NCBI RefSeq assembly: GCF_000189295.2
Contig: NC_016803.1
Location: 1,590,001 to 1,622,000 of the forward strand
DNA: 32,000 bases
Direction of reading: 5' to 3'
Source: Pseudodesulfovibrio mercurii
GTDB taxonomy: Bacteria; Desulfobacterota; Desulfovibrionia; Desulfovibrionales; Desulfovibrionaceae
Shown one piece after another: positions 6,659 to 17,401 of this stretch (position 1 is the first letter of the stretch; each line of letters starts with the position of its first letter). A program made the position numbers and the translations under genes. Below the pieces are notes generated by a model. That model was not told where the DNA came from. It was given only the letters and a program-made list of their open reading frames with translations, and searched no databases.

Positions 6659-8293
6659 TCACCCCTCCTGATGCGGGACGTGGTCGGCGGGGTTGGTCGG
6701 CGCCGGGGGGACGCAGGGGGGCCCGTCCTGTTGCCCGACGGCCGAGGCGAGCCATGCCTCGAGTTCGCGGTCATTGGTTGCCGAGGGCCGAAGCTCCCAG
6801 ACCCCGCGCGCGAAGGTCTCGCGGAAGGCGGGCGAAAACCACTCCCGCGTGTCGTCCCCGGCCTTGGGCGAAAGGAGGAACGACCAGACGGGCGACCCGC
6901 CCAGGTCCTCCCAGACCAGGGCGTCGCGGTAGATGTGGACCGAGGCGAAGGCGTTGCCGAGGTTGGCCCGGCCCACCCGGTACTTGGCGTCCAGGCAAGC
7001 CCACCACCCGTCGCCGGACGGACGGCGCACCGACAGGACGATGTCGGGCCGCCGTTCGGACGACAGGGACCAGCGTTTGGCGTTTGAGCGGGCGAAAAAG
7101 CCCGGGAAGACGGCGTTGAACTCGACCTCGACCCGCGTCCCGTCCGGGGCGACGCCGCACGCCGCCGCGCCCGCGCCGGAACTGCCGAGATCGAGGATCC
7201 TGCCGTACCCGCGCGTGATCCAGGACCAGCCGGGCAATGCGTTACGCAACCCCTCGACCACCGAGAGGAAGCACCATATCTCGTACAGTTCGAAACTCGG
7301 CCGGACCGGCGCGCCCAGCTGGGCGGCGTTGCCGTCGAGGTTGAAACGCGGCGAACAGAACAACCGGCCGAGATTGTGGAAGCGCGCGTAGACGGGGTCG
7401 TCCAGGACCACGAGCAGGGCGGCTTCACTCGGTGGGCGCGGGGTCAGGTGGCGCAGGGGGGACCGGCGGATCGCCCGGCGCACGGAGGCTGCGGCCGCTT
7501 CCATGGCCGAGGATCGCGCCAGGCACCAGGGGGCGCTGTCGTTGCCCGGATAGCGTTCGGCCATCTCCCGCAGGGCCGTGGACACGGACTCGAGCCGCCT
7601 GGCCGCGCGCCCGGCGAGCCAGAGCACATAGCGGTTGGCGGGATGGTCGATGGTCTCCTGGACCCGGCGCAGCGGCACGAGCGGTTCGTCGCCGAGCAGC
7701 TCCAGCCGCTTCCAGGGGTCGAGCCAGGCCCCGACTTCGGGGTGGCGGCTGACCCAGGAAACGGCCTCGCGGCCCGCCTTGCGCATGCGCCGCAGCTCCA
7801 CGTCGGCCCAGTAGCCCGCGTCCTTGGTCCGGGGCGAGGTGCAGATGGCGGTCAGGCTCTCGACAAGGGCGCGGACGAGCGGCAGCAGCGCCACGGTCAG
7901 GAACTGCGGGGACGCCCCGCCGTGCACGTCGGCGCTGCCGCCCTGGCCGCCCTCCATGCCGACGCTCGCCCCGCTCAGCCAGGTCTCGACGTCGGCCAGC
8001 ATGGCCTGCCATTCGCCCTGGAGCAATTTGTATCCCGACGGCCGGACGCGGACCGGATACTCGGCCCGCTCCCCTTCCGACTCGACGCGCAGCAGGCTGT
8101 CGCCGACCCAGAAGCCGGTCGTCAGGGCGAAGCGCCCGGCGGCAACGGCCGGAAGCGGCAGGTGGTCGAGCCACAGCCGGGCATCCGGGCCGGTCTCGAC
8201 GACGACCTCGTAGGAGGCGTTTTCCTCCAGGCGCAGGCTGCCGAACTCGGGGCCGATGCGTTCGCCCGCGCAGAACACGCTGCACTCGATCAT
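6659..8293 (-). CDS. McrC-like nuclease subunit (DUF2357-type N-terminal region + C-terminal PD-(D/E)xK nuclease)
   Basis: Start taken at MIECSV (Met77 of the track ORF); its ATG overlaps the McrB-like stop (ATGA). The DUF2357-like segment is VRVRPSGYKLLQGEWQAMLADVETWL ... FELYEIWCFLSVVEGL. The nuclease motif is RRPDIVL ...(x18)... ACLDAKYR, i.e. D...D-x-K as in McrC. Confidence 0.75.
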   Translation of the reverse strand: MIECSVFCAGERIGPEFGSLRLEENASYEVVVETGPDARLWLDHLPLPAVAAGRFALTTGFWVGDSLLRVESEGERAEYPVRVRPSGYKLLQGEWQAMLADVETWLSGASVGMEGGQGGSADVHGGASPQFLTVALLPLVRALVESLTAICTSPRTKDAGYWADVELRRMRKAGREAVSWVSRHPEVGAWLDPWKRLELLGDEPLVPLRRVQETIDHPANRYVLWLAGRAARRLESVSTALREMAERYPGNDSAPWCLARSSAMEAAAASVRRAIRRSPLRHLTPRPPSEAALLVVLDDPVYARFHNLGRLFCSPRFNLDGNAAQLGAPVRPSFELYEIWCFLSVVEGLRNALPGWSWITRGYGRILDLGSSGAGAAACGVAPDGTRVEVEFNAVFPGFFARSNAKRWSLSSERRPDIVLSVRRPSGDGWWACLDAKYRVGRANLGNAFASVHIYRDALVWEDLGGSPVWSFLLSPKAGDDTREWFSPAFRETFARGVWELRPSATNDRELEAWLASAVGQQDGPPCVPPAPTNPADHVPHQEG

Positions 8294-16405: not shown

Positions 16406-17401
16406 ATGCCCCCGAAGTTGGACCCGACGACCACGTCGGCGCAGAAGCTGATCAGCCTGTACAGCCTGTTGCTGTTTACCGGGCGGACCTATTCCCTGAC
16501 CGGTCTGGCCCGGCATCTCGACTGTTCCAAGCAGACGATCCTGCGGCTGGTGGACGCCCTTGAGGCCGGATCGTGGGCGCGCATCGAATCCTTCCGCAAG
16601 GGCGGGCAGCGCTGGTACCGGATGGTGCTTCCCGAGCAGCGACCGAAACTGTCGCTGGCCCCGGAGGAGATGCAGAAGCTGGCCCTGTGCAGGGATCTCG
16701 TCCTGCACCTGCTGCCCCCTTCGCTCCGGGAGAGCGTGGGGAACTCGCTGTCCAAGACGGGCGTCATGTTGCCCGACCTGTCCCGGCGGGCCGAGGCCCT
16801 GCGCCCCGTGGCCGCGTCCAGGACAAAGGGGAAGGTCGATTACGCGTCGTTCCAGGACCGGCTCGAGGCGCTGCTGGCGGCCGTTCACGGACGCAACATC
16901 TGCGAACTGACCTACCATGCGGCGAACGCGTCCGAACCCAAGTCGTACCATTTCGCCCCCATGCGGCTGGTCTGTTTCCACGACGCCCTCTACGTCCTGG
17001 GGCACGTGGTCTCACCGTCGAGCCCGTGGGAGATCCGCCACACCATAACCCTCGCGGTGCAGCGGCTGGTGGACATCGCGGTCACCGCCGACGTCCACGA
17101 TTTCCCGCCGGTCGAGGAAGGCGCGGGCAGCTTCGGTTTCATGCCGGGGACGAGATTCCGCGTGGTCGTCCGGTTCGACGAGAGCGTGGCCCGTTACGTG
17201 TCCGAACGGGTCTGGAGCGAGGACCAGGCCGTGACCCTCCGCAAGGACGGCTCTCTGGACCTGGCCATGAGCGCCACCAGCCGGTCCGAGGTCCTGGCCT
17301 GGGTCCTCGGTTTCGGCGAATTGGCCGAAATCCTGGAACCGGCGGAACTGCGGGAGGCCATTGCGGAAAAAATGGAATCCATGCTGGCGGCCTACAGGTA
17401 G
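16406..17401 (+). CDS. HTH-WYL-WCX transcriptional regulator (BrxR/CapW-like)
   Basis: N-terminal wHTH YSLTGLARHLDCSKQTILRLVDALEAG. WYL-type core SYHFAPMRLVCFHDALYVLGHV. C-terminal WCX-like WSEDQAV...VLAWVLGFGELAEILEPAELREAI. 331 aa. RBS AAGGAG. Confidence 0.85.
   Translation: MPPKLDPTTTSAQKLISLYSLLLFTGRTYSLTGLARHLDCSKQTILRLVDALEAGSWARIESFRKGGQRWYRMVLPEQRPKLSLAPEEMQKLALCRDLVLHLLPPSLRESVGNSLSKTGVMLPDLSRRAEALRPVAASRTKGKVDYASFQDRLEALLAAVHGRNICELTYHAANASEPKSYHFAPMRLVCFHDALYVLGHVVSPSSPWEIRHTITLAVQRLVDIAVTADVHDFPPVEEGAGSFGFMPGTRFRVVVRFDESVARYVSERVWSEDQAVTLRKDGSLDLAMSATSRSEVLAWVLGFGELAEILEPAELREAIAEKMESMLAAYR

Follow-up and report, generated by a model that had tools for sequence, protein, structure and literature searches.

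A WYL-associated operon on a tRNA-Ala insertion of Pseudodesulfovibrio mercurii joins an accessory AddAB-like pair to a McrBC-like pair in a probable anti-phage arrangement

We asked what could be the function of an operon in Pseudodesulfovibrio mercurii in which genes for an AddAB-type helicase-nuclease are followed by genes resembling those of the McrBC restriction enzyme. The operon lies within a stretch of 32,000 nt (NC_016803.1, positions 1,590,001 to 1,622,000; herein called the window, with a guanine plus cytosine (GC) content of about 68%), where its four minus-strand genes and one divergent regulator gene of the WYL type, as given by open reading frame calls, make up a block of five genes. 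An original prediction, made from the sequence of the window, had taken the four genes for an undescribed defence system. On the basis of the sequence comparisons presented here the block is probably an undescribed anti-phage arrangement, and we give an even chance to the reading that it is a WYL-controlled defence operon, carried on an inserted segment of 11 kb at a tRNA-Ala locus and composed of two modules, each able to exist alone, with the McrBC-like enzyme making cuts and the AddAB-like enzyme degrading the ends thereby produced. The observations behind the original prediction were essentially right, with three corrections of detail as given below, and its interpretation was partly supported.

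Reading along the operon, the gene for the AddB-like protein is found at 13577–16153 (ATG start, 858 residues, the likelier start) or at 13577–16159 (TTG start, 860 residues), followed by those for the AddA-like protein at 10432–13587 (1051 residues, WP_014322076), the McrB-like protein at 8290–10404 (704 residues, WP_014322075) and the McrC-like protein at 6659–8293 (544 residues, WP_014322074), all on the minus strand. The regulator gene, encoding a protein with helix-turn-helix (HTH), WYL and WCX parts (331 residues, WP_014322078), is located at 16406–17401 on the plus strand, with a divergent control region of 252 nt (16154–16405) in between. Exact protein matches were found at NCBI, where the record carries the locus tags DND132_1439 and DND132_1442. 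As had been predicted, the four genes are tightly packed: the AddB-like and AddA-like genes share 11 nt (ATGCCGAATGA), the AddA-like stop codon is separated from the McrB-like ATG by 27 nt, with an AAAGGA sequence resembling a ribosome-binding site inside that gap upstream of the ATG, and the McrB-like and McrC-like genes are joined by an ATGA overlap. Scanning the minus strand at 6659–16159 for terminator-like sites revealed none inside the unit.

The AddA-like protein is a superfamily 1A (UvrD-type) helicase with a C-terminal RecB-family PD-(D/E)xK nuclease, as seen with Pfam (UvrD-helicase 1.7e-42, UvrD_C 9e-15 and PDDEXK_1 4.9e-7). Its helicase motifs (Walker A G13-G15-K16-T17, D336-E-F-Q-D340 and T774-R775-A776) and nuclease residues (H904, D980, D993 and K995) are intact and were conserved in at least 95% of 119 relatives. 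For the AddB-like protein the sole Pfam match was PDDEXK_1 (5.2e-21); among 26 aligned AddB-like proteins its nuclease residues D723, D737 and K739 were invariant, and C598, C845, C848 and C854, which are of the four-Cys iron-sulphur cluster type, were nearly so. Its N-terminal sequence, as read, holds no GKT or GKS Walker A motif and thus resembles a helicase-like scaffold without activity motif. An AlphaFold (AF2) model of this protein (predicted local distance difference test score 87.7) gave Bacillus subtilis AddB as the best Foldseek match (4ceh_B, E 1.5e-20, template modelling score 0.50), with AdnA and RecC next. The model confirms the AddB fold, and the AddAB architecture, as predicted from it, is real. 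The AddA-like protein reached 178.7 bits against NCBIfam addA_alphas (cut-off 860.75) and 158.6 bits against addA_Gpos (cut-off 707.65), and the AddB-like protein matched no NCBIfam model at E≤0.01; the pair is predicted to work like AddAB, yet is placed outside the canonical AddAB equivalogs.

The AAA+ domain of the McrB-like protein (approximately residues 400–704) contains the motifs GLSGTGKT, LILDEMN and VNMDET, which align to those of Escherichia coli McrB (6hz4, E 8e-4), and its sequence matches in the PDB at E≤1, although few in number, were all McrB GTPase chains. The claim that every catalytic motif of the operon is intact was confirmed, with the correction that the supposed MNxxD signature of the McrB-like protein is, by alignment to E. 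coli McrB, N-M-D-E, a shortened NxD variant followed by Glu. This VNMDET signature was nearly invariant in 34 McrB-like homologues. According to Bell et al. 2024 (PMC11090510), a large and uncharacterised branch of McrB is defined by the NxD form. More than 2187 homologues were found, many of them named ‘McrB family protein’ by NCBI, including some at about 50% identity. Generic AAA models of Pfam were matched below cut-off only, with no match to AAA_5, and the NCBIfam McrB model gave 15.1 bits (cut-off 637). With regards to the N-terminal part, residues 1–165 form a lineage-specific domain common to only two relatives, which was modelled at low confidence because only three sequences share it, whereas residues of about 170–350 form tandem winged helices in the structure model, giving weak matches in a fold search to the recognition domains of the type IIS enzymes BpuJI, FokI and Nt.BspD6I.

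Of the predicted DUF2357-McrC assignment for the last gene of the operon, the nuclease half is clear, with a C-terminal PD-(D/E)xK domain of the PDDEXK_7 type (Pfam PF04411, E 2.5e-11) and an ERRPDI...LDAKYR motif that was invariant in the three closest members. The N-terminal DUF2357 domain was matched only weakly (E=0.026, with 14 bits where the cut-off is 23), although UniProt labels the protein DUF2357. We also noted that the McrC-like protein ends with a Pro-rich tail of about 21–25 residues (...QQDGPPCVPPAPTNPADHVPHQEG; window 6659–6730), which points toward the island boundary, is missing from the two closest relatives and may result from the insertion junction.

The regulator was confirmed as an HTH-WYL-WCX protein (Pfam WCX 8.6e-20, WYL 1.5e-6 and a weak HTH_11 match), which also matched the WYL model of PADLOC (E 4e-26). 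It diverges from the operon, as had been described, across an AT-rich region: GC is 52.8% over the whole control region and 39.7% at 16270–16400, as compared with 69% in the operon. No match to the sigma-70 consensus and no clear inverted repeat or operator was found in the control region. BrxR-family WYL regulators mostly accompany bacteriophage exclusion (BREX) systems and type IV enzymes (PMC8565348, PMC9122601).

The pairing of AddAB-like genes with type IV-like restriction genes was found to recur among loci that we gathered from encoding contigs, GTDB genomes, JGI metagenomes and plasmids (171–189 by stage of the analysis, with about 151 distinct loci having both AddB and AddA; single loci are given by L numbers). 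A DUF262 or McrBC-type gene was present, co-directional with AddA and at most 2.5 kb downstream of it, in 11 of the 102 loci that had enough downstream sequence, and the count rises to 12 of 102 with a locus encoding DndB and GIY-YIG proteins. This co-directional 2.5-kb bin contained 13 type IV-like open reading frames as compared with 10 in all other flanks, corresponding to an about 13-fold density. These counts ignore kinship among the loci; in a neighbour-joining tree the partners are spread over at least four branches. Genes of the GmrSD/DUF262 type are found downstream of AddA in the window's own clade (L001, L011, L093 and L173, having AddB proteins 43–46% identical), on three further branches (L004, L142 and L053) and on the R. 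etli plasmid pRsp8C3b (L183). Using greedy open reading frame calls, the distance from AddA to GmrSD was −49 to 58 nt in L001, L011, L093, L173, L004 and L142, and the GmrSD/DUF262 genes of L053 and L183 start within about 0.7 kb of AddA. The same slot just downstream of AddA is occupied by a canonical McrBC pair (AAA_5/PF10117), together with a divergent WYL gene, on plasmids of S. meliloti and S. mexicanum, and by genes for a DndB-like protein and a GIY-YIG nuclease in S. terangae. Other placements were seen in L043, a Myxococcota metagenome-assembled genome, with McrB and McrC encoded co-directionally just upstream of AddB, and in L036 and L064, with McrBC genes convergent just downstream; among these three loci Pfam confirmed the assignment for L036 only. 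A WYL gene often accompanies the McrBC genes that flank the pair on the Sinorhizobium plasmids and in the metagenome-assembled genomes. We conclude that the recurrence of the pairing is not due to chance.

The Sinorhizobium McrB showed 27% identity over 84 residues to the McrB-like protein of the window, having NTAD instead of NMDE, and no similarity was found between the Sinorhizobium McrC and WYL proteins and their window counterparts. The partners are thus not orthologous, a case of non-orthologous displacement within a conserved architecture. Searching the about 151 distinct loci with tblastn and hidden Markov models (HMMs), we found no member of the window's own McrB/McrC family near any other AddAB-like pair, and the combination of an NxD McrB and a DUF2357/PDDEXK_7 McrC with AddAB-like genes was seen in the lineage of the window only. 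The question of recurrence in unrelated taxa is therefore answered in two parts: pairing with type IV-like modules recurs, with non-homologous parts, whereas the exact combination of four families is found in one lineage. That the adjacency as such should be specific to the lineage was a reading we dropped, with canonical McrBC and GmrSD genes having been found in the same slot.

As had been supposed, we consider the AddAB-like pair to be accessory rather than the core recombination enzyme, and three lines of evidence agree: the failure with the NCBIfam equivalog models, the distribution of the family and the insertion context. In an exhaustive HMM search the AddB-like family comprised about 1967 clusters at 50% identity, and an earlier impression of a very rare family, based upon 38 proteins retrieved in a word-index search, was thereby rejected. 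A pattern-based scan of the GTDB species representatives, built from six close AddB-like sequences, retrieved no relative of more than 34% identity, which argues against a core gene of the Desulfovibrionaceae. The pair was found on 26 plasmids, 17 of these being conjugative, and no AddB-like relatives were found in the viral contigs of IMG/VR. Neighbouring genes across the family encode MmeI-like and other restriction-modification enzymes, cyclic oligonucleotide-based antiphage signalling systems (CBASS) with a WYL gene, AbiE, toxin–antitoxin pairs, RES-Xre, operons with ThiF, MPN and multiubiquitin, BREX, CRISPR-Cas, TerB and SIR2, and WYL genes were present in 39 of 151 loci; the most distant members of the family sit in housekeeping-like contexts.

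The block itself is situated between the urease operon (ureC, ureF and ureG) on its left and, on its right, tRNA-Ala(GGC) followed by genes for an ABC permease, a GNAT protein and an alginate lyase. The sole tRNA detected by ARAGORN was this tRNA-Ala(GGC), at 17706–17781 on the minus strand, having a terminator-like hairpin at 17695–17667; the tRNA, its terminator and a repeat copy at 17684–17763 make up the right island boundary (17684–17781, minus strand). The left boundary, at 6570–6649 on the minus strand, is a degenerate direct repeat of the 3′ part of the tRNA and of the terminator stem. A repeat search showed the two copies to be 80 nt long, 74% identical and spaced by 11,114 nt, and they enclose exactly the regulator gene and the four operon genes. 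The left copy was not recognised as a tRNA by Rfam and is therefore a degenerate remnant, not a second tRNA, so that the island described as flanked by tRNAs has a tRNA at its right end and only the 80-nt copy at its left. Between the ends of ureG (plus strand) and the McrC-like gene (minus strand) there is a perfect palindromic hairpin with a 22-bp stem (6545–6588), in the area of which a terminator-like match was found on the minus strand (6563–6542), and which is probably a bidirectional terminator. The hairpin and left repeat (6545–6649) together with the intact tRNA mark the ends of an 11.1-kb insertion. With the repeat copies bracketing the block and no integrase gene present in it, the block is best described as a decayed insertion at the tRNA-Ala locus, and these findings support an accessory island between the urease operon and tRNA-Ala as opposed to a housekeeping locus. 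It was also confirmed, by Pfam annotation of the interval from ureG to the tRNA, that no methyltransferase gene is present there, which fits a type IV enzyme but is no proof of one. Beyond the island, the window encodes a 569-residue AAA_23/SMC_N (RecN/RecF-like) ATPase (21536–23245) and a 331-residue HD_5-domain protein (26730–27725).

How, then, could the two gene pairs work? In the explanation that we favour, the first module would be an accessory AddAB-type heterodimer, composed of an AddA-like motor-nuclease and an AddB-like iron-sulphur nuclease scaffold, and belonging to a family with a slot just downstream of addA that in a minority of loci holds a type IV-like restriction module. A second module would fill that slot in the window, made up of an NxD-class McrB-like nucleoside triphosphatase and a McrC-like PD-(D/E)xK nuclease. 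The WYL protein would hold the divergent promoters repressed until a signal is received. The McrBC-like complex would bind invading DNA by means of the tandem winged helices and the N-terminal domain of its McrB-like subunit, translocate and make a double-strand break, and the AddAB-like enzyme would load onto the new ends and degrade the invader processively, independently of the host RecBCD or AddAB. We propose this order of cutting and shredding because the end-dependence of AddAB/RecBCD and the break-making of McrBC are established. RecBCD and AddAB act from a DNA end and finish the breakdown of phage DNA that has been cut by restriction enzymes; these host enzymes are often inhibited by phages using Gam-like proteins. 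Coupling of the modules would occur through the DNA substrate and shared regulation, and a complex of four proteins would not necessarily be needed.

Several points weigh against such a mechanism. The closest McrB/McrC relatives (65–67% identity) are stand-alone pairs without AddAB, and about half of the AddAB-like loci are without a co-directional partner; the fixed four-gene system of the original prediction had to be given up for these two reasons. Furthermore, the slot also houses genes for Cas4-Cas1(-Cas2), Cas3, TerB, a kinase, HD/AAA_33 proteins, a trio of DUF6361, phospholipase D and helicase, or BREX. Using Pfam as well as the model and fold search, no modified-base reader was detected in residues 1–400 of the McrB-like protein, and part of the uncharacterised NxD McrB branch is predicted to target RNA (PMC11090510). 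The pairing counts given above overstate the number of independent events, since many of the loci are related. Finally, type IV enzymes can be embedded in the operons of other systems and yet act independently, as with BREX, BrxU and BrxR on pEFER (PMC8565348, PMC9122601). That both modules also occur alone points to a modular pairing and not to an obligate four-protein machine, and the partnerless loci, the varied content of the slot and the independently acting type IV enzymes taken together argue for two separable, co-regulated modules. Most likely these two modules are coupled through their substrate, with the McrBC-like breaks being entry points for the AddAB-like enzyme.

It is possible, if in our judgement somewhat unlikely, that the block instead holds two independent defence systems with no more in common than the operon and its WYL regulator, thereby giving complementary protection with no mechanistic interplay. 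The AddAB-like pair would then attack the free ends of incoming phage DNA, and the McrBC-like pair would be a hitch-hiking type IV enzyme directed against modified phages. This would agree with each module being found alone elsewhere, with unrelated systems also occupying the slot downstream of AddA, with McrBC often being co-oriented with type I restriction-modification operons and with the independent protection that BREX and the GmrSD enzyme BrxU give when encoded in the same island (PMC8565348, PMC9122601), but it would leave unexplained why type IV-like genes are so strongly biased to the co-directional position at most 2.5 kb downstream of AddA, with gaps in six GmrSD loci, by greedy open reading frame calls, of 58 nt or less, some of the genes even overlapping. 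Moreover, an end-dependent nuclease and a break-making enzyme present in one cell interact via their substrate, whether or not evolved to do so.

Going further than the coupling proposed for the window, the AddAB-like pair could be a portable ‘shredder’ cassette, recruited by many DNA-directed immune modules and finishing DNA cut by type IV enzymes (McrBC, GmrSD or DndB/GIY-YIG), an extension that we hold to be unlikely. As such a cassette the pair would possibly be insensitive to phage inhibitors of RecBCD, and in Myxococcota operons with Cas4-Cas1-Cas2 it could supply fragments for spacer acquisition. If true, it would be a general accessory layer of prokaryotic immunity replacing the host recombination nuclease.

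That the AddAB-like and McrBC-like proteins assemble physically into an obligate complex, with neither pair working alone, we find very doubtful. The tight operon with its overlapping or near-overlapping genes would suit such a complex, as would the repeated capture of non-homologous McrBC and GmrSD modules beside AddA. Such unrelated folds as McrBC, GmrSD and DndB with GIY-YIG are however unlikely to share one docking surface, the gene order varies (upstream in L043 and convergent in L036), and the nearest McrB/McrC relatives without AddAB, as well as the many AddAB-like pairs without any partner, speak against mutual dependence.

A similarly slight chance is given to a role in repair or self-protection, whereby the AddAB-like pair would process breaks made by the co-encoded nuclease in host or plasmid DNA for recombination, so that a type IV enzyme would be less costly to bring into new hosts. 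Enzymes of recombinational repair have this architecture, the WYL regulators DriD and PafBC control DNA-damage responses, the pair is found on conjugative plasmids that change hosts, and the housekeeping-like contexts of the most distant family members would fit as well; the neighbours of the family nonetheless include many kinds of defence genes whose products leave host DNA uncut (such as CBASS, AbiE and toxin–antitoxin pairs). Rhizobia and similar hosts are expected to have their own chromosomal AddAB. Highly improbable is, furthermore, a guard or decoy, the alternative named in the original prediction, mimicking host RecBCD/AddAB so that binding of a Gam-like inhibitor would license the McrBC-like effector: defence systems that monitor RecBCD inhibition do exist, such as retron Ec48, but a pure decoy would not need the catalytic residues that are strictly conserved in the 119 AddA-like and 26 AddB-like proteins, and the partners are too diverse for one licensing mechanism. 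An ordinary housekeeping AddAB next to a restriction system by chance, although AddAB is the usual enzyme for double-strand-break processing in many bacteria and the GC of the block (69%) matches that of the genome, is hardly credible and was largely refuted by AddA-like scores far below the NCBIfam cut-offs with no match for AddB, by the lack of close relatives retrieved from the GTDB species-representative genomes, by its location on an 11-kb insertion that has a tRNA at one end and, at the other, a copy of the 3′ part of that tRNA, by a family that is plasmid-borne and resident in defence islands, and by pairing that recurs with non-orthologous parts.

Some further observations were made at AddAB-like loci. 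A WYL/WCX gene together with a gene for an approximately 700-residue protein having two PF00004 AAA domains recurs beside these loci, often divergently (L011:18199-21931, L025:18697-22086, L033:18249-21638, L035:14542-17873 and L173:581-3835), and could represent a WYL-regulated module of its own. In a 6.7-Mb assembly (L003:12697-15890) and likewise on Agrobacterium vitis plasmids (L178:11688-14826), the helicase and nuclease parts of the AddA-like gene are found in two distinct open reading frames, which could be due to a frameshift or pseudogene or be a genuine split. One 4.7-Mb contig of a Thermodesulfobacteriota metagenome-assembled genome (CAXXLZ010000002.1) carries two AddAB-like pairs (L024 and L031), with a WYL gene near each, a double occurrence more in keeping with an accessory element present in several copies than with one core enzyme. 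Operons for ThiF adenylyltransferase, MPN and multiubiquitin proteins directly adjoin the pair on Rhizobium, Bradyrhizobium and Bosea plasmids, and such ubiquitin-like conjugation neighbours were seen in L176, L180, L183, L184, L186 and L187. CRISPR genes follow the pair in three Myxococcota metagenome-assembled genomes, being a Cas4-Cas1 fusion and a Cas2-sized open reading frame after a 10-nt gap (L062:12511-17703), Cas4-Cas1 after a 158-nt gap (L079:12727-18623) and Cas3 after an open reading frame of 214 codons (L060:10015-17468), and here the pair could process DNA ends specifically for the acquisition of spacers. A set of three genes was located directly beside the pair, upstream or downstream, in three unrelated loci, being annotated as DUF6361, phospholipase D and helicase in L179:2220-8259, consisting of DUF6361, a Pfam-negative middle gene and an SNF2-like helicase in L050:15693-22005, and having a Pfam-negative first gene, a weak phospholipase D match and a helicase in L008:16278-22101.

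If a mobile, separately regulated AddAB-type enzyme accompanies restriction modules, defence islands would be shown to possess a nuclease of their own for the processing of ends, and a partnership of restriction enzyme and exonuclease would become directly testable in one clonable fragment of 11 kb. The operon would also offer the first genetic access to the NxD branch of McrB-like nucleoside triphosphatases, which is uncharacterised. The AddB-like family, with its approximately 2000 sequence clusters, is missed by current defence-finder models, and dedicated AddAB-like enzymes are possibly linked to CRISPR adaptation.

As a final analysis, we compared the block with known systems. The partnership of AddAB-like and type IV-like genes appears, provisionally, to be undescribed and uncatalogued, as far as the open-access literature and PADLOC-DB v2 are concerned, in line with the supposition that the combination is not among the named systems. 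No description of an AddAB-like, GmrSD, DUF262 and WYL defence pairing or of the DND132 locus tags was found in that literature, and AddA, AddB, RecB and UvrD are unmentioned in the McrBC census of Bell et al. (PMC11090510). PADLOC-DB v2, which holds no model for the AddB-like protein, gave generic or partial matches only, these being generic GajB/UvrD matches for the AddA-like protein, a weak Cas4 match for the AddB-like protein, none for the McrC-like protein and, for the McrB-like protein, PDC-M26A (E 8e-34) over residues 411–520 only. Component A of PDC-M26 is thus partially matched, and no component of PDC-M26 was matched by the other three operon proteins; no published description or make-up of PDC-M26 was found in the literature. 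The many PADLOC GajB (UvrD-like) models matched by the AddA-like protein, the best at E 1.2e-36, and the presence of a helicase with a nuclease in a defence context recall Gabija, but these matches cover the UvrD core only, the AddA-like protein carries its own RecB nuclease and partners with an AddB-like iron-sulphur nuclease, and Gabija was rejected since none of the five block proteins matched GajA (OLD/TOPRIM) in PADLOC.

With the McrBC type IV enzymes, and their NxD branch in particular, the window shares an overlapping mcrB-mcrC-like gene pair, an McrB-type AAA+ protein, a PF04411-type nuclease and the N-M-D-E signature, being NxD with a following Glu (PMC11090510). It differs from that branch by the tandem winged helices at the N-terminus of the McrB-like protein, where no EVE, ADAM or YTH reader is found, by having no adjacent methyltransferase or two-component genes and by the joining to AddAB-like genes, an association unmentioned in the census (PMC11090510). 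The CoCoNuT systems, which belong to the NxD branch, have long coiled coils fused to an NxD McrB, together with nucleases directed at RNA (HEPN or others) and domains that bind RNA. The window has the NxD motif, but the model of the 400 N-terminal residues of its McrB-like protein, to which part alone the statement applies, has no helix longer than about 13 residues, and Pfam shows no HEPN, CSD or Hsp70-like domain in the operon; we therefore did not assign it to CoCoNuT, lacking the long helix in the McrB-like model and the HEPN or RNA-binding domains.

The closest likeness of the first module is to AddAB, RecBCD and AdnAB, including B. subtilis AddAB (PDB 3U4Q/4CEH), the shared features being a two-gene addB-addA unit with overlapping genes, a UvrD-type superfamily 1 motor with a RecB nuclease in the AddA-like protein, and in the AddB-like protein a helicase-like scaffold, with no Walker A recognisable in the sequence, and a PD-(D/E)xK nuclease with four Cys residues. 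The differences are that the AddB-like protein has 858 residues as compared with 1166 in B. subtilis AddB, that both subunits fail the NCBIfam equivalog models and that the pair, often linked to WYL genes, resides on a tRNA-associated insertion, plasmids and defence islands, with no conserved core locus. The regulator has the same HTH-WYL-WCX architecture as the BrxR and CapW regulators and is likewise located beside and divergent from the operon. With pEFER, finally, where BREX is found together with BrxU (GmrSD) and BrxR, the window has in common a WYL gene and a type IV enzyme embedded beside a larger defence module in a mobile and modular arrangement, the larger module being BREX in that case and an AddAB-like helicase-nuclease in the window.

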